Of a stretch of 64,000 bases of DNA, positions 2,826 to 25,303 are shown in pieces. This stretch comes from Escherichia coli (GTDB lineage: Bacteria; Pseudomonadota; Gammaproteobacteria; Enterobacterales; Enterobacteriaceae): assembly GCF_003018115.1 (NCBI RefSeq), contig NZ_CP027457.1, one strand, 5' to 3'. Positions within the stretch are counted from its first letter, which is position 1; every line of letters starts with the position of its first letter. Position numbers and translations under genes: made by a program. Under the pieces are notes generated by a model. That model had not been told where the DNA came from and did not search any database. It saw only the letters and a program-made list of their open reading frames with translations.

Positions 2826-3278
2826 CTACCAGCGTTTTGCTGCCTGCTGATCGCTCTCCCGAGCTTCAACCCAGCGGTCGCCTTCAGGCGTGGCTTCGCG
2901 CTTCCAGAACGGTGCGCGGGTTTTGAGATAATCCATAATAAACTGCCCGGCTTCAAACGCACTGCTGCGATGCGCACTGGTGACACCGACAAAAACAATT
3001 TCATCGCCCGGCCATAATTCCCCGATGCGGTGAATCACCGTGACGCGCCCCAGCGGCCAGCGGTTACGCGCTTCATCGACAATTTCTGCCAGTGCTTTTT
3101 CAGTCATCCCCGGATAGTGTTCGAGGGTTAATGCTTTGACGCTGTCGCCCAGGTTATGGTTGCGCACCTTACCAGTAAAGGTGACTACCGCACCGTCTTC
3201 GTCACGCTCCGCCAGCCACGGGTACTCTTCTCCTACGCTGAACGGCTGCGGACCAACAACAATTTTGGTTTCTGCCAT
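2826..3278 (-). CDS. moaE: Molybdopterin synthase catalytic subunit MoaE
   Basis: 150-aa translation MAETKIVVGPQPFSVGEEYPWL...; operon order moaA-E. Confidence 0.92.
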   Translation of the reverse strand: MAETKIVVGPQPFSVGEEYPWLAERDEDGAVVTFTGKVRNHNLGDSVKALTLEHYPGMTEKALAEIVDEARNRWPLGRVTVIHRIGELWPGDEIVFVGVTSAHRSSAFEAGQFIMDYLKTRAPFWKREATPEGDRWVEARESDQQAAKRW

Positions 3279-3279
3279 C

Positions 3280-3525
3280 TTAACCTCCGGTTACCGGCGG
3301 GAAGAAAGCTACTTCGTCGCCGTCAGTCAGCGGATGGTCAAAACTCACCAGCGTCTGGTTGACGGCAGCCAGTAATTTGCCATCTTCCAGCGCCAGCGCC
3401 CAGCGATCGCTCTGCGCAGCCAGGTGCTGGCGTAACGCTTCAACGGTTGGGAAATCCGCAGCCACTTCGGTTGCATCTGTTCCTACCAACTCGCGCACCT
3501 GGGCGAAAAAAAGAACTTTAATCAT
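3280..3525 (-). CDS. moaD: Molybdopterin synthase sulfur carrier subunit MoaD
   Basis: 81-aa translation [17 protein letters not shown]... ending in GG. Confidence 0.9.
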
Positions 3526-4003
3526 CCGCTTCCACCTTAAAGTCACCTGACTTGCCGCCGCTCTTCGCCAGCAAACGTACCGGACCAATCACCATATCTT
3601 TTTGCACCGCTTTGCACATGTCATAAATGGTCAGCGCCGCCACGGAGGCCGCGGTTAACGCTTCCATTTCGACACCGGTTTTCCCGGTCAGGCGGCATAA
3701 GGTTTCTATACGCACCCGATTGTGCTCCGGCTCGGCCTGTAAATTGACTTCAACTTTGCTGAGCATCAGCGGATGACACAGCGGGATCAGATCCCAGGTG
3801 CGTTTTGCCGCCTGAATACCGGCAATACGCGCAGTGGCAAATACGTCGCCTTTGTGGTGGCGACCATCAATAATCATCGCCAGCGTCTCGCTGCGCATGG
3901 TGACAAAGGCTTCCACCCGCGCTTCACGCACGGTTTCCGCTTTGGCGGAGACATCCACCATGTGCGCTTCGCCAGCGGCGTTGATATGGGTCAGTTGCGA
4001 CAT
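3518..4003 (-). CDS. moaC: Cyclic pyranopterin monophosphate synthase MoaC
   Basis: 161-aa translation [21 protein letters not shown]... Confidence 0.92.
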
Positions 4004-4005
4004 AC

Positions 4006-4518
4006 TTATTTCTTCAAATGTGGATGGAAATTACACGGACGCGTACGGGCATCCAGCTGCGGCGCGATGATATTTTCCCATGCGGTACGGCACGCTTTGG
4101 TCGAACCCGGCATGGCGAAAATCAGCGTTTTGTTAGCGACGCCCGCTACCGCACGAGATTGCAACGTGGAAGTGCCAATCTCTTCAAACGACAACATACG
4201 GAACACTTCACCAAAACCTTCAACTTCACGGTCGAACAACGGCAGCAATGCTTCGGGAGCCTGATCACCTTCCGTCAGGCCAGTCCCCCCCGTAATCAAC
4301 ACCACTTGTACATCGTCGCTGGCGATCCACGCAGATACCTGAGCGCGAATAGCGTAGCGGTTTTCTTTCACAATGGCTTTATCGACAACGTGATGGCCCG
4401 CTTCTTGCGCCGAATCGCGCAAATAGTGACCGGAGGTATCGTCTTCTTCACCGCGACGATTAGAAACCGTAAGAATAGCAATACGGGTCGGGATAAATTC
4501 AGTGCTTACCTGACTCAT
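4006..4518 (-). CDS. moaB: Molybdenum cofactor biosynthesis protein MoaB
   Basis: 170-aa translation [30 protein letters not shown]... Confidence 0.92.
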
Positions 4519-4539: not shown

Positions 4540-5529
4540 TTAGCCGCCAATGTACGATAAGTTTTGCGTAATACCGGTGTTGTTTTGATGCAGGAAATGG
4601 GTCTGTTTCTTCTCCCGCAGCGCCGCTGAAATACGCGCTTCCAGCGCCTGTTGCTGGGCATCGTCTTCCAGCAGATCGCGCAGGTTAACACCGCCTTCAC
4701 CAAACAGGCAGAGATGGAGTTTACCAATGGAGGAAACGCGCAGACGGTTGCAAGTGGCGCAGAAGTCTTTTTCATACGGCATGATAAGGCCAATCTCTCC
4801 GGCGTAATCCGGATGACAAAAGACTTGCGCGGGACCGTCGCTGCGTTGACGTAATTGGTGGATCCAGCCGCGACGCAGTAGCTCGTCACGCAGAACCTGA
4901 CCAGAGATGTGATGCTTACGGAAGAGCTCGCTGCCCTCGCCCGTTTCCATCAGTTCGATGAAACGCAGCTGGATGGGACGATGCTGGATCCAGTTCAGAA
5001 AGGTGTCGAGCTGGTGATGATTAACATCACGCATCAGCACTGTATTGACTTTGACCTTCTCAAAACCGGCCTCAAATGCAGCATCAATCCCCGCCATGAC
5101 CTGGTTGAATTTATCCTGCCCGGTAATAGCGTGAAACTGGCGGGCGTCCAGACTGTCGACACTGACGTTGATGCCAGTAAGTCCAGCATCGCGCCAGTTC
5201 GCCACATCGCGTTCCAGACGGTAACCATTGGTGGTGACCGCAATCTGGCGGATAGCGTCGTTTTCTCGCACAGCGGCGATGATATCGGTAAAGTCGCGGC
5301 GTAAAGACGGCTCACCGCCTGTCAGGCGCACTTTTTCGGTGCCCAGACTGGCGAAGGCGCGCGTAACCCGGCGAATTTCATCGACGGTCAGAAAGCCTTT
5401 ATTGGTGACGCCGCTCGGTTTGTAGCCATCCGGCAGGCAGTAGGTGCAACGAAAGTTACACACATCGGTAATCGACAGGCGCAAGTAGTAAAACTTACGC
5501 GCAAATGCATCAGTCAGTTGTGAAGCCAT
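4540..5529 (-). CDS. moaA: GTP 3',8-cyclase MoaA (radical SAM)
   Basis: Translation from [31 protein letters not shown] (CxxxCxxC radical SAM motif); 329 aa. Confidence 0.92.
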
Positions 5530-5534
5530 GTACA

Positions 5535-5680
5535 CCTTTCCAGATACGGGAGGCGAAGTCATTTCTTCCTTCGCCCTGGTGGCAATCTTTACGAGCATTG
5601 TCACGGCCAAAGCACCGTATCAGTTGACCCAGGTGCAGAGGCTAGAGTGTTTAGTGGTTAAGCCGATACTAGCGTGTAAA
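5535..5680 (-). ncRNA. Probable molybdenum cofactor (Moco) riboswitch in the moaA leader
   Basis: Position only: structured 5' UTR immediately upstream of moaA, where E. coli carries the Moco RNA motif; boundaries approximate. Confidence 0.4.
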
Positions 5681-5865
5681 CGAGATTTTTACCATCCACA
5701 CTTTCGCTATGTAATCATGTATATAGCGTCATGATCGTGCTATTTCGCTACAGAATAAGGGAAAATGGCGGTTTTACTTTGATATACATCATCAGGGAGG
5801 CATAGCGTACATCGTCCTTTAGAGGTAGAAGAAAATAGTTTGTATCCTCAATATTGGCAGGTTAA

Positions 5866-6834
<969 letters not shown>

Positions 6835-6887
6835 CGGAAATCCGAAGGAAAATTCCGGCTTCCTATTGAAGACAAAGTGCGCGTTGT

Positions 6888-6990
6888 TTATGCCGGATGC
6901 GGCGTGAACGCCTTATCCGGCCTACAAACCGCGCTAATTCAATGTATTGCAGAATCATGTAGGCCTGATAAGCGTAGCACATCAGGCAAT
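6888..6990. repeat. REP (repetitive extragenic palindrome) pair
   Basis: GCCGGATGCGGCGTGAACGCCTTATCCGGCCTACA and TGTAGGCCTGATAAGCGTAGCACATCAGGCA motifs. Confidence 0.75.
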
Positions 6991-13314: not shown

Positions 13315-14604
13315 ATGACAACGGACGATCTTGCCTTTGACCAACGCCATATCTGGCACCCATACACATCCATGACCTCCCCGTTACCGGTTTATCCGGT
13401 GGCAAGCGCCGAAGGTTGCGAGCTAATTTTGTCTGATGGCAGACGCCTGGTTGACGGTATGTCGTCCTGGTGGGCGGCGATCCACGGCTACAATCACCCG
13501 CAGCTTAATGCGGCGATGAAGACGCAAATTGATGCCATGTCGCATGTGATGTTTGGCGGTATCACTCATGCGCCAGCCATTGAGCTGTGCCGCAAACTGG
13601 TGGCGATGACGCCGCAACCGCTGGAATGCGTTTTTCTCGCGGACTCCGGCTCCGTAGCGGTGGAAGTGGCGATGAAAATGGCGTTGCAGTACTGGCAGGC
13701 CAAAGGCGAAGCGCGCCAGCGTTTTCTGACCTTCCGCAATGGTTATCATGGCGATACCTTTGGCGCGATGTCGGTGTGCGATCCGGACAACTCAATGCAC
13801 AGCCTGTGGAAAGGCTATCTGCCAGAAAACTTGTTTGCTCCCGCCCCGCAAAGCCGCATGGATGGTGAATGGGATGAGCGCGATATGGTGGGCTTTGCCC
13901 GCCTGATGGCGGCGCATCGTCATGAAATCGCGGCGGTGATCATTGAACCGATTGTCCAGGGCGCAGGCGGGATGCGCATGTACCATCCGGAATGGTTAAA
14001 ACGAATCCGCAAAATGTGCGATCGCGAAGGTATCTTGCTGATTGCCGACGAGATCGCCACCGGATTTGGTCGTACCGGCAAACTGTTTGCCTGTGAACAT
14101 GCAGAAATCGCGCCGGACATTTTGTGCCTCGGTAAAGCCTTAACCGGCGGCACAATGACCCTTTCCGCCACACTCACCACGCGCGAGGTTGCAGAAACCA
14201 TCAGTAACGGCGAAGCCGGCTGCTTTATGCACGGGCCAACTTTTATGGGCAATCCGCTGGCCTGTGCGGCTGCAAACGCCAGCCTGGCGATTCTCGAATC
14301 TGGCGACTGGCAGCAACAGGTGGCGGCTATTGAAGTACAGCTGCGCGAGCAACTTGCCCCCGCCCGTGATGCCGAAATGGTTGCCGATGTGCGCGTGCTG
14401 GGGGCAATCGGCGTAGTCGAAACAACTCGTCCGGTGAATATGGCGGCGCTGCAAAAATTCTTTGTCGAACAGGGTGTCTGGATCCGGCCTTTTGGCAAAC
14501 TGATTTACCTGATGCCGCCCTATATTATTCACCCGCAACAGTTGCAGCGTCTGACCGCAGCGGTTAATCGTGCGGTGCAGGATGAAACATTTTTTTGCCA
14601 ATAA
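13315..14604 (+). CDS. bioA: Adenosylmethionine-8-amino-7-oxononanoate aminotransferase BioA
   Basis: Translation from [62 protein letters not shown]..., 429 aa. Confidence 0.95.
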
Positions 14605-14662
14605 CGGGAAGTCAGCGTGTGGGTTTCTGGCTACACTTTCTGCAAACAAGAAAGGAGGGTTT

Positions 14663-15139
14663 ATGAAACTCATCAGTAACGATCTGCGCGATGGCGATAA
14701 GTTGCCGCATCGTCATGTCTTTAACGGCATGGGTTACGATGGCGATAATATTTCACCGCATCTGGCGTGGGATGATGTTCCTGCGGGAACGAAAAGTTTT
14801 GTTGTCACCTGCTACGACCCGGATGCGCCAACCGGCTCCGGCTGGTGGCACTGGGTAGTTGTTAATTTACCCGCTGATACCCGCGTATTACCGCAAGGGT
14901 TTGGCTCTGGTCTGGTAGCAATGCCAGACGGCGTTTTGCAGACGCGTACCGATTTTGGTAAAACCGGATACGATGGCGCAGCGCCGCCGAAAGGCGAAAC
15001 CCATCGCTACATTTTTACCGTTCACGCGCTGGATGTAGAGCGTATTGATGTCGATGAAGGAGCCAGCGGCGCGATGGTCGGGTTTAACGTTCATTTCCAC
15101 TCTCTGGCAAGCGCATCGATTACCGCGATGTTTAGTTAA
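14663..15139 (+). CDS. ybhB: PEBP/YbhB family protein
   Basis: Translation MKLISNDLRDGDKLPHRHVFNGMGYDGDNISPHLAWDDVPAGTKSF..., 158 aa, RBS AAAGGAGGG upstream. Confidence 0.88.
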   Translation: MKLISNDLRDGDKLPHRHVFNGMGYDGDNISPHLAWDDVPAGTKSFVVTCYDPDAPTGSGWWHWVVVNLPADTRVLPQGFGSGLVAMPDGVLQTRTDFGKTGYDGAAPPKGETHRYIFTVHALDVERIDVDEGASGAMVGFNVHFHSLASASITAMFS

Positions 15140-15229
15140 TCACTCTGCCAGATGGCGCAATGCTATCTGGTATCACTTAAAGGTATTAAAAACAACTTTT
15201 TGTCTTTTTACCTTCCCGTTTCGCTCAAG

Positions 15230-15244
15230 TTAGTATAAAAAAGC
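15230..15244. repeat. attR: Prophage attachment site core, attR (P-O-B' read on the minus strand)
   Basis: Exact lambda 15-bp core GCTTTTTTATACTAA (as reverse complement) with bacterial B' arm CTTGAGCGAAACG on the ybhB side and lambda-like P arm on the phage side. Confidence 0.85.
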
Positions 15245-15691
15245 TGAATGCGAAACAGCAAACCAAATAATATCAATACGTTACAATGCATTTAGTCTAA
15301 AAAATAGACTGCATAATGCTACAAAACACAACATATCCAGTCACTATGAATCAACTACTTAGATGGTATTAGTGACCTGTAACAGAGCATTAGCGCAAGG
15401 TGATTTTTTGTCTTCTTGCGCTAATTTTTTGTCAACACACTGGGTTAGCTAAATTTACAACCATGCTCAGTATCTCGATAAGCGCAGAGAAATGATGCAG
15501 TGGTGGGCAGACTGGTTTGATAGGAAGGTGTAACCTGAAAGTAGCACACAGCCTTTATTCCGTTTACCAGGCTTTGTGCTATAACTCTTGCATAACATCA
15601 TTATTAACATCAATTTCCATTCAAATTGATTTTATTTAATCTAAATTAACAAAATGTAATCCTCATTTAAACGCATATTTAAAATCATTAT

Positions 15692-16756
15692 CTATTTCAC
15701 AAGCATATTTTTATTATTTCTTTTGAAAACAACATTGGTTAACAACCTTATTACAGGTTTTTCTAAGTAGTAACTAAATATCATTGACGTTATTAAAGCG
15801 AAGATAATCATTGCAGCATAAAGGATAATTGCTCCTGTATAGTCGGTTATTTTATAACCAATGCATCTTAAAAAGGTTGAAAGCACAATGAAAGAAATTG
15901 TATGAATCAAATATATAGAATACGAAGCATCCCCAAGCTTCATAAGTGCTTTGTGAACAAATGATTTTTCATTGAAAGAAATATTTATTGCGCCAAGAAC
16001 ACATAAGAGAGATGGCACCCCTACGTATATAATACGCTCATCACCAACACCCCATACATTAGTCCCAACAATTAAAAATAGACCTACAGCAAAACATAAA
16101 ACTGATAGTTTTATGTTTTGAAGAATCTTTTTCTGATAAACATAGCCGCATATCATACCGAATATGAATTCAAGATGTATCGGGCTGAAAAATAATCTTT
16201 GGATAAAGTTCAAGCTGCCCCAGTTATAAAACAAGAATGTATAAGTACAGAATAGGACGCCAGTGGCAACTCTTCCATATTTACCAAAAATACAGCACAT
16301 TAATGCTAGCGACATATAGAAGTAAACTTCAAAATTTAGTGTCCAACTTATTGCATAAATGGTTTCTGCCTTCCATGATTCAGATGGGTAAAACAAAAAC
16401 ATAGCGCTTGTTACAAACTTCCTGAAAGCATCATCAGGAATCTTGCCAGTTACCATTAAGGCTATAGCATAAAGCAAAAGAGACATCCAGAATGCTGGAG
16501 CTACGCGAATTAATCTTTTAATTATAAAATCACCAATACCACGATCGCTCCTCATGCACTTTCCGATAGTTATGTACATAACCATTCCAGAAATGACGAA
16601 AAATATATCAACTCCGTACTTACCGAACTGTACGAACCCCTGATCAGGGAGAATAAGTCGCGTAGATGGAACGAAGTGGTTTACTGCTACCTTGGCATGG
16701 ATGAACACTACCATCAAGGCCGCAATGCCTCGTAAATACTGAAGCCCAATAATCAT
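15692..16756 (-). CDS. Acyltransferase-3 family membrane protein, probable O-antigen acetyltransferase (seroconversion)
   Basis: 354-aa multi-TM translation MIIGLQYLRGIAALMVVFIHAKV...; located between att and tailspike as in Sf6 oac; AT-rich. Confidence 0.7.
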   Translation of the reverse strand: MIIGLQYLRGIAALMVVFIHAKVAVNHFVPSTRLILPDQGFVQFGKYGVDIFFVISGMVMYITIGKCMRSDRGIGDFIIKRLIRVAPAFWMSLLLYAIALMVTGKIPDDAFRKFVTSAMFLFYPSESWKAETIYAISWTLNFEVYFYMSLALMCCIFGKYGRVATGVLFCTYTFLFYNWGSLNFIQRLFFSPIHLEFIFGMICGYVYQKKILQNIKLSVLCFAVGLFLIVGTNVWGVGDERIIYVGVPSLLCVLGAINISFNEKSFVHKALMKLGDASYSIYLIHTISFIVLSTFLRCIGYKITDYTGAIILYAAMIIFALITSMIFSYYLEKPVIRLLTNVVFKRNNKNMLVK

Positions 16757-16767
16757 GAGGTTCTCCT

Positions 16768-16789
16768 AAAATGACATCCATGTCATTTT
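16768..16789. promoter_or_regulatory. Perfect 22-bp palindrome between the tailspike stop and the acyltransferase start
   Basis: AAAATGACATCCATGTCATTTT; possible terminator/attenuator or operator. Confidence 0.4.
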
Positions 16790-16850
16790 AGCGACTAAAC
16801 CACGATGGTAAAGATAATCATAACAACTATTCAACAGAGTAGTTTTGTGT

Positions 16851-18875
16851 TTAGTAAGCAACAAACGTTCCTGGAGATCCAGTGGCAGTGCATCGCAACC
16901 TGAATGGTGCCGTGGTTGCATTCACCAATACAAAATCCTCCCCCTTTCGCCAATAACCACCAGTTGGTATACCCTGAATCCCATTTTGACTATAACCTAA
17001 GTTGTACGTAATTTCTCTTAGGTATGGACCAATGTTTGTTTGCCAAGTTCCTGTTTCCACCCATACATTACTGTGTCGGAGTGATCTCCCCTGAAATGAA
17101 GCATTTGGTTGAGGAGTTACACCATCAACCATTAGACCAATAAATTTCATGGATCGAAGATAGCTAGGAGCTGAAGGTGAAACAGGAAATTCAAATGGCA
17201 CAGTTATTGTCGTTGTCGATAGATAATTGTTTCTGTCCCAAAATTTTATATTGATATCACCAAGATTAAACCTGTTGACATTTCTTATGTCAGCAATTCT
17301 AGAATCCATTAAAGATGGATTGTAAACAAACAAAAGATCACAATCCCCAATTGTTAAATTGTTCAAGGCTCCTTTATCACACGATAGAAACCTTACTCCC
17401 TCTATTTCTCCTGTTATTCTTCCTATAGACACCTCTTCTGCTAGAGTATTGGCGGACCTAGCATTCATAACAGACTTTGGAGTGTTACCATCTGTACCAC
17501 GAAATATATGTAAATGCTCAATATTTATTCTTGAACAATCAGCATAACTAACCGCACCAAGCCCGGTTCCGCCAACTTCAGCATATAGTATTGTCATGTT
17601 TGCATCTGTTGCACCAGCGATAGCTTCTTCACTTCCATCATAGTGGAAATAATCTATATGTATGCGACCACCTCCGTATATGCCATTGTCTGCACAATTT
17701 TTTAGATACATTCTGTTTACTGTTACTTCGATATCCTGCGCTGAATTAAGTATAGAACAACAGTCTACGGCAGATATTGAATTAATAATGTTATTTTTCG
17801 ACCCGTCAAAAAAATGCAGCAGTTGAGGCATAGAAGCATTGCTGTTACCAGTATTTACACAATTGTATCCTCTTATGACCCCAACAACATTATTGGAACC
17901 CTTGAACTGTATTCCAATTACACCAGTACCTGAACCAGATGGCGCGTAAAGCCCAGTTATATACACTGATTTAAAGGTATTGTTACTACCAGATACCCTG
18001 ATAGGCATGCAAGCTGTTTCATTGGCATCAATATTTAGATTAAAATATCCTTTTTCTTTAGTTATATTTACAATATTTCCATAAGTTGGTGATGTTGTAA
18101 TTAACTTGCCGTCATTAATACAATTAATTGAACGGGCTACAGAGGTTGTTCCTGTAAGTTTAATTGTAATCCCGTCTATCAGCACAGGACACCCAGGATA
18201 AGACATTGCAGAGTTGAATAGTTCTGTTTGGTCAACATCGCAACTATCTACAAGGCCTAAAGATTGTGCCTTAACTTCAGTTTGATATACAATAGCCTTA
18301 AGTCCATTTTCTATATCATGAATATTTGAATTATCTTGTATGCCTGAGCTAGATATTATATATACACAACTGCCACCGTCACCTTTTGAAAAAAAACCCC
18401 TCGTCTCAACAATATCGCCTTCCTTTAAATTCATATCTGATTTCATATCAGATACGGTGTCATATTTTCGACCATAATGTGATGAAAGACCTCCAATAAT
18501 AGCATATCCATTGCTACTTGATAAATCTACCCTTAGCCGGTCAGGGTCATACTTCAGCACATTAGGAAAATAGAACTGCTGTGCACCATACGCATCATAA
18601 ACAGCCATAGAATGGCCTTGCACGGTAACGAATTTGGCAATCTGTCCGTTATATACAGGGTAACCAGCAGCGTTAATGATGATTGGTTGAGAAACAGGAA
18701 CGTGAGAACCGTCTTCATTCTCTACATAAACCTGAATCTGGTTTTCAGGATTTACAGGGTCAGTGTCAATTTTACCGATATAAATTTTGCCATTGGCAAC
18801 CGCTTTAAAAGAACGCGCCATAGTGAAGAGTTGCGAAGGCATGCTTACCACAACATTTGCGGTGATATCTGACAT
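16851..18875 (-). CDS. Tailspike protein with P22 gp9-like N-terminal head-binding domain and divergent receptor-binding domain
   Basis: N-terminus [59 protein letters not shown] closely matches P22 tailspike; remainder unrelated. Confidence 0.85.
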
Positions 18876-18996
18876 TTCATTGCTCCAGACGAATGATATG
18901 ATGCAACCATGATGTGATTGCATACCGAAATGGTACTATTGAGTATTTATCCAGTAGGTTACGATGCCATTCCACCCAACTGGTGAGGCATCAAGG

Positions 18997-19263
18997 ATGT
19001 ACAGCAAATACGACGAGGCGCAGTTTCACTTGAGACTTCCGCATGAACTCCACGCGAAAATTAAGCAGCGTGCGAAGATGAATAACAGGTCGCTGAACTC
19101 AGAGATAATTGCAGCGATTGAAGAATCATTGGCTAAACAAAGCTCTGCACCAGTTTACATTGACGATGCAGAGCGTATGGCAGAACAACAATCCGATATA
19201 GTTAAGAAAATGGTTTTTGAAACGCTTAAGACCATGTATAGCAATAATAAAAAGGAAACATAG
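18997..19263 (+). CDS. mnt: Mnt-like ribbon-helix-helix repressor (immI-type)
   Basis: Translation MYSKYDEAQFHLRLPHELHAKIKQRAKMNNRSLNSEIIAAIEESLAK... resembles P22 Mnt/Arc family. Confidence 0.65.
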   Translation: MYSKYDEAQFHLRLPHELHAKIKQRAKMNNRSLNSEIIAAIEESLAKQSSAPVYIDDAERMAEQQSDIVKKMVFETLKTMYSNNKKET

Positions 19264-19333
19264 AAATCTAGTTTCCGACTAAAATGGCATTGCCTTCATG
19301 ATATCCTGTGAAAAACTAAGGAGAGTTAACCAT

Positions 19334-19819
19334 ATGAAAAAATCACTGTTAATTATCCCACTTCTGCTGGTTGGATGCGCAAAAGTAAGTGACTATCAAG
19401 CAAGTTGCGAACAACGCTATCAAAAGCTTAGCGATATGGCTAATTGCCTTGATGCCAGTGTGAAGAACGACTCACGCATGGCATCAGCACCAACACCTAA
19501 GCTGTATGTCCTTGCTGCAAAGGTGCTCGGGCAAGGTGTCGATGAAGGAAAGATAAGTGACGCACAGGCAAGACTTGAGCTTCAGAATCTTTATGTTCAA
19601 TTACAAAGCCAAGAACAAGCCCAACAAATAGCACAAAGCCAAGCATTCCAGCAGGCTTTATTGAATTATCAGGCTGTAAACACAATGCAAGCGATCGAGC
19701 AAAAAGCGCGCCAGCCTGTTATAACTCAACCTTACCCAACACGCGTTGACACATATACAAACTGCAATTCAGGATTTGGAAACACGGTAACATGCAACAG
19801 TAGCAGTAACATCAGATAA
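19334..19819 (+). CDS. Lipoprotein of unknown function (in the P22 sieA position)
   Basis: Signal peptide plus lipobox MKKSLLIIPLLLVGC; Q-rich mature region. Confidence 0.55.
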   Translation: MKKSLLIIPLLLVGCAKVSDYQASCEQRYQKLSDMANCLDASVKNDSRMASAPTPKLYVLAAKVLGQGVDEGKISDAQARLELQNLYVQLQSQEQAQQIAQSQAFQQALLNYQAVNTMQAIEQKARQPVITQPYPTRVDTYTNCNSGFGNTVTCNSSSNIR

Positions 19820-19909
19820 CAATCAGCAAAGGTATCGCCTATGCAGAGGAATACGATAAACCTCGCGTTCTACATATTTGGTTTTTGCACGTTCCTGGTG
19901 TTTGAAAGG

Positions 19910-21907
19910 CTATTCTGACAACGAATCAGACTTAGCACCCTGCGTCAGTGCATTAATCGCTTTTTGCGCTTGCTGCATGGCTTTCTCAAACGCTGTCGAT
20001 CCGCGTGGGGTGTTTGCCATTCGGAGCATTGCATTTCTGAATGGCTCGCTCTCATAGGCGCGAGTAAGAAGTCCGTAGCTTACTGCTGCGCCAGTTGTCG
20101 CCGGGTTCATTGCCGTACCATACCCAATAATGAACGGGATAGTTTGCTGCCCTGTTGGTGTTGTTACTGCCGCTTTTGCAGCCTGCTGCGTGGATTGCAG
20201 ATAGTTTTTTAATCCTTTCAGATAAGCAGCGTCCTGCCCCTTAAATGTGATGCCAGTATGGTTTTGCAGGATGTTAAGCTGCCGAAGGAACTGGTCAGGG
20301 GATCCGCCAGATTTCTCCATCGCCTTTCCAATGATGCCATTGCGCATTTGCGCCCTGCCAACACGACCAACTGAGTTATACAGCGTCTTAATTTCCGATT
20401 TGTTCTTGCTGAATAGCATGTTGTTGACAACTTCCGGCGTCAGGTCGCCTTTCATGAGAACATTCTTCAGCCTGGTATTCTTTAGTTTCGCCGCTTCGTC
20501 AGCGTAGACGGCATTGGCCTGCTGATATTTACGGAGAGTATCGTTGCCAAGATTCTGACCAATGGCACCATTGATATCGTCTGTCATTGCCTTGTAAACG
20601 CGCTGAATGGCAGCATCGGAACGGTTTGGTAACACTGGTCGTTCCCCCTTCACGTCCATTCTGAACTGGCTGCGCAGATCGCTTAATTGCTTCAAATCCA
20701 GATTTACCGGACCATCAGGACCAGCATTGCGAACAAGCTCATCACGATAGGACTGAAGTTTTGAAATAGTCTCGTTATCGGCGACCTTACCAAGCTTCTG
20801 CAGGTTAGATATTTCTGTATCAATCTGCTGAATTGCTCGAGCAGGCTGGATATTGACTCCCGCCATTGCATTCTGAACCTGCTCAAGACGGTTCCCTGCA
20901 GCACGACGAATTCCTGATGTTTTCGCTTTAAGGCTGTCAATAACAACAGCTGGATCATACTCACCGAATTTATCAGCAAATCTCTGCACCAACTGGCTTC
21001 TCGCTTCCTGTTGCGTTGCTCTCATTCCGCTTGTGCCAGCCAGAGGGATATTTTCTGCTGTAGTCTGCGCCATTTTTCCGACGCGGGAAGTTGGTTGTAA
21101 CAGGTCTGTGGTGTGCAGAGGAACTCCTTCACGCTCTGCAAATCTGATAGCCTGCTGCGCTTCTGGCGCAATAGCACCGCGAACACCACGATAAGCAGCA
21201 CCTAATCCACGTCCGGCAGCGTTAATAGCACCTCCAGCCAGCACACCAACGCCTAAATCGGTAGCGAGTGCTTCCGCATCATCTTTCGCACTATTTGCAG
21301 CAAGTGATCCAACTGCGTTTTCTGCTAGAAGGCGAGTTGCCCCCTGAGCAATTCGACCAGCAAGTGTTGGTGCCTGTACCGCCGCTCTCTCAACGCCAGC
21401 AGGAGTGAGGTAAGGCAATGCTTCAGCAAATACCCTTCCCTCTGTCGTTTGTGGAGTCAGCGCACCTTGCTGAAGGCCAAAGTCCTGCTCTAATCCCTGC
21501 GTTGTTACTCGTGGTGCTGGTTGATATGTACCATCGCCAATGCCGAGTTTACCGCCAGCCCAAGCCGCCGCGCTTGTTACAGCATCGGCAACTGATGCAG
21601 GTATGTTTGCCACGTTCACGCCAGCCTGCACCAGTCCACGACCAGTCTCTTTTACTGCTTCACCAAGATCAGACATAAATCCACTTTGCTGTGGTTGTTG
21701 CTGTGCTACTGGTTGTTGTGTCTCCACTGGCTGCACAGATGGCAATGGATAGGCAGCATAGAAAGCTTGCTTAGCCTGCTCTGCATTTTCTCCGGCTTGC
21801 GGGGCCACGACTTCATTGAAGTATTGCTCCTGAGCCTGCGCTTTTTGTTCTGGTGCTAACGCCTGATACTGTGGAGAGGCGATAACATCTTTCCATGCTT
21901 TAGCCAT
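19910..21907 (-). CDS. Ejection (injection) protein, P22 gp16-like
   Basis: 665-aa protein at the end of the gp7-gp20-gp16 series; position and composition. Confidence 0.7.
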   Translation of the reverse strand: MAKAWKDVIASPQYQALAPEQKAQAQEQYFNEVVAPQAGENAEQAKQAFYAAYPLPSVQPVETQQPVAQQQPQQSGFMSDLGEAVKETGRGLVQAGVNVANIPASVADAVTSAAAWAGGKLGIGDGTYQPAPRVTTQGLEQDFGLQQGALTPQTTEGRVFAEALPYLTPAGVERAAVQAPTLAGRIAQGATRLLAENAVGSLAANSAKDDAEALATDLGVGVLAGGAINAAGRGLGAAYRGVRGAIAPEAQQAIRFAEREGVPLHTTDLLQPTSRVGKMAQTTAENIPLAGTSGMRATQQEARSQLVQRFADKFGEYDPAVVIDSLKAKTSGIRRAAGNRLEQVQNAMAGVNIQPARAIQQIDTEISNLQKLGKVADNETISKLQSYRDELVRNAGPDGPVNLDLKQLSDLRSQFRMDVKGERPVLPNRSDAAIQRVYKAMTDDINGAIGQNLGNDTLRKYQQANAVYADEAAKLKNTRLKNVLMKGDLTPEVVNNMLFSKNKSEIKTLYNSVGRVGRAQMRNGIIGKAMEKSGGSPDQFLRQLNILQNHTGITFKGQDAAYLKGLKNYLQSTQQAAKAAVTTPTGQQTIPFIIGYGTAMNPATTGAAVSYGLLTRAYESEPFRNAMLRMANTPRGSTAFEKAMQQAQKAINALTQGAKSDSLSE

Positions 21908-23295
21908 TAATCACCCCATAGTGAAGAAAAGTTACTGCTGGCTGCTGGCTGTGATACCTGTGCAGGTTGAGATTGCTTCCGCTGAGATTTACCAACATTA
22001 ACGTTATATTGTTGGTTGTAATTGTTGGTGTATTCCTGAATTTCACGAATCGACTGCTGCATAGCCTCCGGGCTTGAATAGTCAACCTGCGGCATCCCCT
22101 GAAAATACATCTTCGCTTCTGCAACGGTGTTAATACCACTGGCACCCATGTCCCTTGCTGCCGCCACACCCTGATTCTGCATTCTGCCCTGAATACGTTG
22201 TGCTGAGTTATATAACTGGCGCTGCTCTTTTCCCGTTAATCGGCTGCGAACATCAGCACCAATTGCTGGATTACCTGCACCGCCTGTCATTCCTGTCATG
22301 AAATCGAGAGCAGAAGCGTCTGCATTTGCGATCGCGTCGATATCCTTCTTCATGGCATAGTTTTGTGCTGATGCAGACGATGTTGCAGGCGCAGCGATTG
22401 AACTGGCAGGGACGCGAACCATATTCCCCTCGTTGTCGATGCCTTCGTAGAACGCATTAGCCCCAGCGCCATGAAGCTTCCCGCCTACCGTTACAGTTCT
22501 GCCATCTGATAACTGAACTGTACGCTCATCATTCCCAGCGATTCCTCTTGTTGACGCTCGCTGCATTGCCAAATCCTGACCTCGTCGCGCAGTAGAAGCA
22601 GATAAGTCCTGACCGCGCATCGTGATGTTCTGGCCTCGTGCTGTTAGCGCCTCGCCAGCCTGATTGCTGCGGATTGTCTCTGCAAGTTTCCCGCGATCAA
22701 TCTCACGACCAGCCATCTTGTCCTGAACATTGAAGTAATCAATTGGACCAAGAGCAGCCATCCCAAGGTGATCAACAAACTCACCAAATCCTGAAGGATT
22801 CTGCTGATACATCTGAGCAACGTTATTAGGGTCAACACCGACGCGCGCCAGCTCATTGGCGTTGTTTTGCAGCCATGATTGCATTGCTTCTGGAGACGAG
22901 GCCGCAAGGCGTGCGCCAGCCGCTAAGGTGCCGATAGAATTGCGCTGGTCTTCATCAATGAATCCCATGCCTTTACGAACGGATTCAATCTGGTCTGGAT
23001 ATTGAGTAGCCAACTGACGCAAAGCACCGCGATCACCAGACGCATAAGCATTAGCGTATGCCTGCTGAAATTCTTTCTGCCGCTGAGCCTGCTTTTCCTG
23101 CTGAAACACCCCCGCAATACCTGAAAGGCCTTGCAAAGCAGTCAGCCCAACATTGTTAGCGCCTGAACGCTCAATATCATTGTTCTGCCTGATAAGCTGA
23201 AGCGTATTGCCGATGTCATTTACGCTCGGAGCGTTTGAGTTGACGCCGCCGATACCAGCCAACAATCCGCCGTTTGTTCCTTGCCAAGTAGCCAT
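21907..23295 (-). CDS. Ejection protein, P22 gp20-like
   Basis: 462-aa protein; synteny with P22 gene 20. Confidence 0.7.
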
Positions 23296-23304
23296 GATTA
23301 CCCC

Positions 23305-23997
23305 TTAAAACAACGAGCCAAGCAATCCGATACCAGCACCAATGCCAGCGCCCCAAGGCGTTGATGTTCCCAAAAGACTGGCAAGACCTGCACCGGCAAT
23401 CGCACCAGACGTGCCACCGCTAATTGCAGTCTGAAGACTTGATGGTTTATTGGCATTAGCAGCGGCAAGTGCTGCACTTTGCTGTGCAATGCTGCTCATG
23501 TTGTTGGCGTATGTCTGCCCAGCGTTTGCCTGACCTTGCAGCGCACCAAGCCCAACGTTTGCCAGATTGTTGTAATTGCTCATCTGGTTTGATAACCACG
23601 ACTGACCGAGAGTCGGAGCAATCGTAGCCAGTTGATTGCTTGTGGCTGTCGAACCAAGTCCGCCAGTCGCCTCCGCAGCAGCAAGACTCTGGTAACGAGC
23701 CTGACCTGCAAGGTCTTTATACTGCTGAGAATTGTAATACTGATTAAGTGCCTGCCCCTGACCTTCTAAACTGGAAAGATTCTGAAGCTGGTTAACATAC
23801 TGCTCCGCAAGCGGCGTGAACGGAGCAAGGTTTTTCATGATCGTCTGCCACTGCTGATTTTGCAGGTCTGCGGCATACTTCTGGGCTTCTGCTGCATACT
23901 TTGCGCTTTTATCAGAGCTACCACCTTTCCCGCCTTTTTCAGGGCACCAAGGTTCCTCGCCGCGCAGTTTTCTGCCCAGCTTAAATGCATATAACAT
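23305..23997 (-). CDS. Ejection protein, P22 gp7-like
   Basis: 230-aa Q/A/N-rich protein with C-terminal hydrophobic tail; synteny. Confidence 0.7.
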   Translation of the reverse strand: MLYAFKLGRKLRGEEPWCPEKGGKGGSSDKSAKYAAEAQKYAADLQNQQWQTIMKNLAPFTPLAEQYVNQLQNLSSLEGQGQALNQYYNSQQYKDLAGQARYQSLAAAEATGGLGSTATSNQLATIAPTLGQSWLSNQMSNYNNLANVGLGALQGQANAGQTYANNMSSIAQQSAALAAANANKPSSLQTAISGGTSGAIAGAGLASLLGTSTPWGAGIGAGIGLLGSLF

Positions 23998-23999
23998 GG

Positions 24000-24455
24000 C
24001 TATCTCCCGTGATTCAGGAAGTCGATTAGTTCTTCGCGTGTGGCGCTGTAAAAAGTCACGTCATCCACGCCTTTAAAGTATTTCTTGATGGTTCCGACAC
24101 GCTTAAGGCCAATCATTGCGCAGTAAATCTGCCCGTGGCGGAATTTGCGTGCGGCGAACGATGTGACGCACTGAACGGTGGTGTTAGTCAGAATGTATCG
24201 CCAGAAAGCCAGCCCGATTTCCTTGCTGAATCCACGAATCTCTGGCAGGTACATGGCGTGGCAATCGAATGTCAGCGGCTGAATCTCCTGATAGTAAACA
24301 ATGCCGCCGAACTGACCGTGCACGTTCACCTCAAAGTAACGGCAATCAGGTTTGTAGTCGTATCCATCACCGTTGTTGCTCCCGGCAATAATGTCAGGGT
24401 GATTTCCGACTGCTTCTATCAGGTCGATGTTTCGCGTTGGTTTGAACTGAATCAT
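24000..24455 (-). CDS. P22 gp14-like virion protein
   Basis: Translation [51 protein letters not shown]... Confidence 0.8.
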   Translation of the reverse strand: MIQFKPTRNIDLIEAVGNHPDIIAGSNNGDGYDYKPDCRYFEVNVHGQFGGIVYYQEIQPLTFDCHAMYLPEIRGFSKEIGLAFWRYILTNTTVQCVTSFAARKFRHGQIYCAMIGLKRVGTIKKYFKGVDDVTFYSATREELIDFLNHGR

Positions 24456-25303
24456 TACTGCTCCGCGATTATCTTGATGGTTGTGGCAGTAAACGCCGCA
24501 CCATTCGACTGAATGGTTAACGTGCTGCCATTTGTGGCAAGAAAGCCGTCTTTATCCACGCTGAAGAACGTAGCTAACAGGATGTTATCGGTCGTTGTCG
24601 CCGAGTTGCGGCTGCTTACCAGTGTGTCAGGAACAGAGCCGGAAAAGGTTAGCTGCATTGACCTGTTGGCTGTTCCGCTGGGCCACGTCCCGACGATCGA
24701 CAGCTTGAAGAACAAGGTTTTGTTCTCGTTGAACACAACCATCTTGTTGTTAACGGTGTCGAAGAATGGTGCCAACGTGCCGGATGACGGCGTGAGCGTT
24801 TTCAGCAGGCTAACAAGGTTGGTCGGCGCTGTCGGGATGGTTACTGATACGCCAGAGTAAACAACCTCTGACTTCTTGCGAGTAGTGGCATACTCCAGAG
24901 CATCGATGCGCGTTTCATGGTCTGAAACCTGCGATTCCAGCGACTGAACTCTGGTATCAAGCGACGCAATATCGCTTTCATTCTGCGCTATTCGTGTTTC
25001 ATGTTCCTGAAGAGTTGATTCTGCCTGGCTGATTCGCTCCTCATGATTAACAAGCGTTGCTTCCGCAGCAGAAATTCGCTGCTCATGGTCAGCGAGAATC
25101 ACATCCTGCTCATCGTTCCTGACCTGTGCATCATAAGCGCCCTGTCCGGCCTCGTTGGCCTTGTTAGCCACGTTACCAACATCAGTGCCCTGTGCGATAA
25201 CGTAAAGCAGATACGACTGCGAGAAGATATTGCGTGGAAGGACTGATGTGTCGAGCCGTGTAGCCTGAATGATTACCGGCACATTGAGATTCGAATCAGC
25301 CAT
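24455..25303 (-). CDS. Tail needle protein (P22 gp26-like) with extended C-terminal knob
   Basis: N-terminal [52 protein letters not shown] plus heptad-repeat coiled coil; 282 aa versus 233 in P22. Confidence 0.8.

Follow-up and report, generated by a model that had tools for sequence, protein, structure and literature searches.

The moaA leader and its Moco riboswitch

The locus raises the question of whether the leader of moaA, in a stretch of Escherichia coli DNA of 64,000 nucleotides (the window), contains a riboswitch for the molybdenum cofactor (Moco), and, if so, which nucleotides it comprises. An earlier note had predicted, by position only, such an element in the moaA 5' UTR, at 5535-5680, and had proposed a covariance-model search on the minus strand. 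In this search (cmscan), Rfam family RF01055, the Moco RNA motif, matched positions 5517-5661 on the minus strand with 103.4 bits, compared with a gathering score of 36 bits, and the alignment spanned model positions 1-135 of 135, bearing out the prediction over the full length of the model. With an E value of 4.7e-26 (1.2e-24 in the window-wide scan), the match is highly significant, where a leader lacking the element had been expected to give no significant hit. When the whole 64 kb was scanned, RF01055 was the sole Rfam family over its gathering score. The RefSeq feature "molybdenum cofactor riboswitch", mapped from strains JM109 and EC1515, occupies exactly 5517-5661 as well.

We are therefore confident that positions 5517-5661 on the minus strand represent the E. 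coli moaA Moco riboswitch and that it acts as a translational OFF switch. The element is already known, being represented in Rfam and RefSeq and having been studied experimentally; the locus is indeed the type example of the Moco RNA class, not merely a member of it. The interval first proposed was correct for 127 of the 145 nt of the element but needs to be shifted by 18-19 nt toward the gene. It leaves out the 3' 18 nt (5517-5534), where the moaA start codon and the far end of the P1 3' strand are located, and takes in 19 extra nt (5662-5680), which are promoter DNA rather than leader RNA, as they lie upstream of the S1 transcription start site deduced from the literature (see below).

The element sits in the 5' UTR of the Moco biosynthesis gene moaA and overlaps the moaA start. 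The gene overlapping the element scored 370 bits against the MoaA equivalog profile TIGR02666 (cut-off 284), and the moaABCDE operon is intact in the window:

5517..5661, minus strand: Moco riboswitch, an aptamer with built-in expression platform (RF01055 match and RefSeq feature)
4540..5529, minus strand: moaA, encoding 329 aa from the ATG at 5529-5527; first of the genes that the riboswitch controls (TIGR02666 and RefSeq start)
4006..4518, minus strand: moaB (open reading frame and RefSeq annotation of the collinear strain EC1515, as for the following three genes)
3518..4003, minus strand: moaC
3280..3525, minus strand: moaD
2826..3278, minus strand: moaE

A 356-aa open reading frame starting with TTG at 5610 was also considered as moaA and rejected as an artefact of mechanical ORF listing; the ATG at 5529 is preferred because it is the RefSeq start, because the MoaA profile aligns from residue 5 and because of the spacing to the Shine-Dalgarno (SD) region. 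Upstream of moaA, yvcK lies on the opposite strand, followed by uvrB. REP-type palindromes are located at 6886-6966, between yvcK and uvrB, where two Rfam families gave sub-threshold matches (naRNA4, 38.3 bits with a gathering score of 59.5; ES036, 20.7 bits with a gathering score of 37.6).

Paired elements, expression platform and promoters

All five paired elements of the motif, P1-P5, arranged around a multistem junction, map onto the window sequence. Mapping the 42 pairs of RF01055 through the cmscan alignment gives 34 that are standard here, along with 7 non-standard pairs and 1 deletion; the junction reads CUCuCUAGCC compared with the consensus CuC.CGAGCc. The elements are:

5645..5659, minus strand: P1 5' strand, pairing with 5523-5536 (cmscan pair map)
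5523..5536, minus strand: P1 3' strand, which holds the 3' part of the SD (G5536, G5535, U5534, G5533) and brackets the start codon
5606..5642, minus strand: P2 stem, 5642-5626 with 5621-5606 (cmscan pair map)
5579..5604, minus strand: P3 hairpin, 5604-5600 with 5583-5579, with five model pairs and one A-C mismatch
5551..5576, minus strand: P4 hairpin, 5576-5566 with 5561-5551 and a GAAA tetraloop at 5565-5562
5540..5550, minus strand: P5 mini-hairpin (CC...GG), a two-pair stem of 5550-5549 with 5541-5540 and the conserved loop GUAUCU
5533..5541, minus strand: SD region, GGAAAGGUG, read from the sequence

The inner pairs of P1 lie over the 3' half of the SD (C5645-G5536, C5647-G5535, A5648-U5534, C5649-G5533 and A5650-U5532), and its outer pairs form beyond the AUG (C5656-G5526, A5658-U5524 and A5659-U5523), so that the AUG is enclosed. 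Five nucleotides separate the AGG of the SD region from the AUG. A P1 3' strand harboring the SD and the start codon is the arrangement described for E. coli (PMC2408646), and sequestration of SD and AUG by P1 is the recognisable expression platform of the present element.

The interior of P2 is a U/C-rich block of bulges and mismatches. Its receptor-like bulge is a variant, CCUGGG...UACGG, of the canonical tetraloop receptor CCUAAG...UAUGG; the same variant is found in E. albertii and Citrobacter, and the fully canonical pair occurs in 4 of the 99 aligned relatives introduced below. P3 can be extended to eight pairs (5597-5604 with 5579-5586). Its presence in the window, as read from the sequence, marks the element as belonging to the Moco-type subclass and not to the tungsten type, as presence or absence of P3 correlates with the use of Moco or of the tungsten cofactor (Tuco; PMC2408646). 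The P3-lacking variants of the motif, proposed Tuco/WCo riboswitches, share with the present element the junction core, P1, P2, the GAAA-looped P4 and P5, but differ from it in lacking P3 and in being associated with Tuco metabolism.

Transcription of moaABCDE starts from a ModE-activated promoter, S1, and an FNR-dependent promoter, S2, with a distance of 131 nt from S1 to the start codon (PMC2408646). A scan of 5450-5950 for consensus sigma-70 promoters returned no sites, as expected for activator-dependent promoters, and the positions of S1 and S2 consequently rest on literature arithmetic. The candidate elements are:

5660..5671, minus strand: probable S1 -10 element TAGTAT (5671-5666) with the S1 start near 5660, deduced from the 131-nt distance (PMC2408646) and the sequence
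5705..5728, minus strand: putative ModE-type operator palindrome, CGCTATATACATGATTACATAGCG, upstream of S1, with the core TATAT-N7-TACAT at 5709-5725
5779..5792, minus strand: FNR-like site, ATGATGTATATCAA, upstream of S2, with one mismatch to TTGAT-N4-ATCAA

The sequence TATAT-N7-TAYAT, which we take to be the ModE consensus and on which the assignment of 5705-5728 as a ModE-type palindrome is based, has a single match in the 64 kb (5709-5725; 0.16 expected). A search with TTGAT-N4-ATCAA, presumably the FNR consensus and the basis for regarding 5779-5792 as FNR-like, gave 5 matches with 3.8 expected, such that this site is not significant alone. Its position would fit the FNR-dependent S2 promoter described previously (PMC2408646).

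Conservation in E. coli and covariation in relatives

All but two of 5426 complete E. coli genomes (5424) matched a 501-bp leader query, with the RefSeq riboswitch annotation beneath it. The 145-nt aptamer was at least 99% identical in 5396 of the 5424 genomes, and identity below 99% was seen in 28 genomes for the aptamer compared with 1202 for the flanking 501 bp; the element is more conserved than the sequence that surrounds it. The earlier description of the element as ordinary core-genome regulation thus holds, as it is already annotated in RefSeq and near-invariant in E. coli. Among the matches to the leader and riboswitch, two were on plasmid-labelled records and a few genomes had two copies, which may be real duplications or a matter of assembly labels.

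The window and E. coli K-12 carry the same element at the same locus (RF01055, PMC2408646), and they have in common P1-P5 including P3, the platform with the SD in P1, the gene neighbours and the RefSeq annotation. Positions 5390-5660 are identical to the K-12 derivative JM109. Regulski et al. 2008 (PMC2408646) worked with an RNA of about 149 nt, starting 9 nt before P1 and ending 21 nt past P1, and this RNA therefore has the same sequence here. Intergenic differences from JM109 are confined to three single-base polymorphisms, all outside the tested RNA, at 5809, 5681 and 5661, after which the sequences do not diverge again until 5389. Position 5661 (T versus A in K-12), which is unpaired, is where the Rfam match begins and corresponds to about position -1 of S1, 5681 (G versus A) lies within the S1 promoter spacer, and 5809 (T versus C) is upstream of the FNR-like site. 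The variants are common to other natural isolates, such as EC1515, and no functional effect would be expected from them.

In one clinical isolate, strain 774 (NZ_CP183138.1), a copy of ISVsa5 (IS4-like; 1279-2487 of the extracted locus) is located between yvcK and the moaA promoters, at about window position 5807. This insertion lies upstream of the FNR-like site, and the riboswitch and moaA are intact.

Could the match nevertheless be a chance resemblance, or a decayed, functionless relic in the strain from which the window derives? The thermodynamic z score of the 145-nt RNA, only -1.57 compared with shuffled sequences, speaks for such an explanation, and folding energy used as a detector would not have flagged the element, as its minimum free energy (MFE) structure is not the consensus fold either. 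On the other hand, an E value of 4.7e-26, identity to the functional K-12 RNA, an intact moaABCDE operon and near-invariance across 5424 genomes with more variable flanks all argue against it. Based on the covariance match, the K-12 identity and the conservation of the aptamer, we consider this explanation effectively refuted and give it virtually no weight.

Beyond the species, 120 loci in a wide range of bacteria matched a degenerate DNA pattern over the P4-P5-SD core. Of these, 99 were aligned using a covariance model built from the sequences of E. coli, E. albertii and Citrobacter together with the Rfam structure. Standard pairs were found in 89.8% of cells, compared with 64.6% upon shuffling and at most 46% with slid partners; two-sided changes occurred in 35 of 41 pairs, and the covariation score for the consensus fold was 0.49 versus 0.15, all values referring to an alignment that had been fitted to the model. 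The P1 helices (helices 1-4) covary, P2 showed both-side changes in 11 of 11 pairs in its main helix, helix 5, and in 3 of 3 in its distal segment, helix 6, and 8 of 11 pairs in P4 exhibited compensatory changes; P5 and the three invariant P4 pairs (columns 195-197 with 221-223) sit in bases that were fixed by the search pattern. P3 is present in 38 of the 99 relatives and absent in 61. At columns that are at least 85% conserved, E. coli departs from the relatives at a single position, C5543 in the P5 loop, which is U in 94% of them (n = 99).

The relatives also differ in what follows the aptamer. Among 122 pattern matches (the window itself and 121 in relatives), 62 have an ORF that starts 2-13 nt past GGAAAGG, as in E. 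coli; in 35 of the other 60, a T-run lies within 70 nt. These start-codon and T-run classes match the two platform types already described for the Moco motif (PMC2408646).

Signal, mechanism and alternative folding

When placed behind a constitutive promoter in a translational reporter, the E. coli leader conferred more than 3-fold repression upon induction of Moco synthesis (PMC2408646). Repression was lost with the P3-disrupting mutation M1 and restored by the compensatory mutation M2, knockouts in the Moco pathway revealed that it depends on Moco synthesis, and tungstate was without effect on the E. coli RNA (PMC2408646). Together, the reporter and pathway data suggest that the leader responds to Moco itself. 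In that study, the instability of the ligand stood in the way of demonstrating that Moco binds the RNA directly (PMC2408646). According to a 2024 paper, the precise metabolite had yet to be identified (PMC10845959), a December 2024 review refers to an RNA "of unknown structure" (PMC11672702), and the searchable literature contained no report of direct Moco-RNA binding or of a three-dimensional structure.

As the SD lies inside P1 and in light of the reporter results (PMC2408646), the most likely and best-supported mechanism is one in which a ligand-stabilised P1 blocks translation initiation. The leader of about 131 nt transcribed from S1 would fold into the five-stem aptamer P1-P5, with P3 present and the GAAA tetraloop on P4. 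When Moco, or a very closely related molybdopterin-Mo species, is abundant, it would bind the multistem junction and stabilise P1. Stabilised P1 would then bury part of the SD and bracket the AUG, ribosomes would fail to initiate and expression of moaABCDE would fall. While the motif, its pairs, the location of SD and AUG inside P1, the K-12 identity of the RNA and the covariation in relatives are grounded in the present analysis, we infer the direct contact between Moco and RNA and the P1-stabilisation step. ModE-molybdate at S1, FNR at S2, activation by CsrA and Rho-dependent termination of the untranslated leader form outer layers of control.

In a different reading, the leader is a real regulatory structure but serves as a protein operator, the Moco signal being conveyed by a Moco- or MPT-binding protein. 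This would be in line with the lack of reported ligand binding in vitro (PMC2408646, PMC10845959, PMC11672702), and the leader is already known to bind one protein, CsrA, which has two binding sites within the aptamer and acts as a translational activator (PMC7652899). Nevertheless, no such protein has come to light since the 131-nt region was delimited (PMC2408646), and the occurrence of the same junction core in very distant phyla argues for a universal small-molecule ligand. The correlation of P3 with the use of Moco or Tuco, and the two classic types of riboswitch expression platform downstream of the aptamer in relatives, likewise speak against an operator, and we regard a protein intermediary as quite improbable.

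CsrA and Rho might also be thought to account for most of the regulation, the apparent response to Moco being secondary. Apart from CsrA activation (PMC7652899), this explanation could draw on a Rho-dependent 3' end in the leader or early ORF and on a moaA fusion that is more than 2-fold higher in a rho R66S mutant (PMC7815308), as well as on two GGA motifs in the window, one in P4 (5569-5567) and one in the SD region (5541-5539). It is difficult to reconcile with the pathway knockouts and the P3 compensatory mutants, which, under a constitutive promoter, establish a specific dependence on Moco synthesis (PMC2408646); moreover, Rho termination is an expected consequence of blocked translation and not an alternative sensor. 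We therefore consider it very improbable, even more so than a protein intermediary, and retain ligand-stabilised P1 as the preferred mechanism.

How the leader folds when no ligand is bound is less straightforward. In ViennaRNA calculations, the fold constrained to the consensus had an energy of -39.2 kcal/mol compared with -48.0 kcal/mol for the unconstrained fold, a gap of about 9 kcal/mol. Two stretches of 7-bp perfect complementarity, between GAUACGG (5621-5615) of the P2 3' strand and CCGUAUC (5549-5543) of the P5 loop, and between UGCACCU (5637-5631) of the P2 5' strand and AGGUGUA (5537-5531) of the SD, explain why the MFE fold differs from the consensus aptamer; the alternative fold also pairs AGCC (5643-5640) with GGCU (5527-5524). 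As the unconstrained ensemble pairs the SD, too (mean pairing probability 0.75), a simple picture in which the ligand-free state equals a free SD is not predicted.

The alternative MFE helices were considered as a family-wide anti-structure and rejected: across the 99 relatives their positions were paired in 61.9% of cases versus 60.1% upon shuffling, and their covariation score was 0.097 versus 0.084 for shuffled controls, compared with 0.49 for the consensus fold. We regard the alternative fold as a peculiarity of the E. coli lineage or as reflecting the limits of the energy model rather than as a feature of the family. A more specific version, in which the ligand-free leader of Escherichia and close relatives would adopt a lineage-specific, SD-hiding alternative fold and the ON state would depend on protein, appears unlikely to us. 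In-line probing of the ligand-free RNA left much of P2 unsupported (PMC2408646); if true, such a fold could explain this mismatch as well as the need for CsrA to open the leader.

The thiM TPP and btuB AdoCbl riboswitches are likewise cofactor-sensing translational OFF switches of E. coli, each with a 5'-UTR aptamer for a pathway end product and an SD that is sequestered in the ligand-bound state, while their aptamer folds and ligands are unrelated to those of the Moco RNA. Several E. coli cofactor OFF riboswitches show secondary Rho-dependent termination. For the TPP and AdoCbl classes, ligand binding and three-dimensional structures are established. In contrast, neither is established for the Moco class (PMC10845959, PMC11672702), for which the exact ligand species, the three-dimensional structure and the discrimination between Moco and the tungsten cofactor are the questions at the level of the class. 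The locus gives no new handle on the class, and its significance for the window lies in correct annotation: as the riboswitch is intact and has the K-12 sequence, feedback control of Moco synthesis should behave as it does in the model strain.

Elsewhere in the window, the region to the left of ybhL (1-1980) encodes ybhN along with a "DUF3969 family protein" and a "hypothetical protein"; EC1515 has ybhM at this place. Just 18 of the 5426 complete E. coli genomes covered at least 80% of this region, which was 100% identical in the O169:H41 ETEC strains F6326-C1 and 2014EL-1345-2, as well as in strains F9792 and F8111-1SC3, for which no serotype is given. On the other side, collinearity with EC1515 ends past bioA/ybhB (about 15000-64000), where EC1515 has a lambdoid prophage. 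The portion tested, 14500-24500, matched P22-like prophage genes with about 96% identity over 70% of the query, including those for a head-binding tailspike, DNA ejection proteins and glucosyltransferases, among them yfdH, which suggests that a prophage different from that of EC1515 may reside on the bio side of the chromosome.
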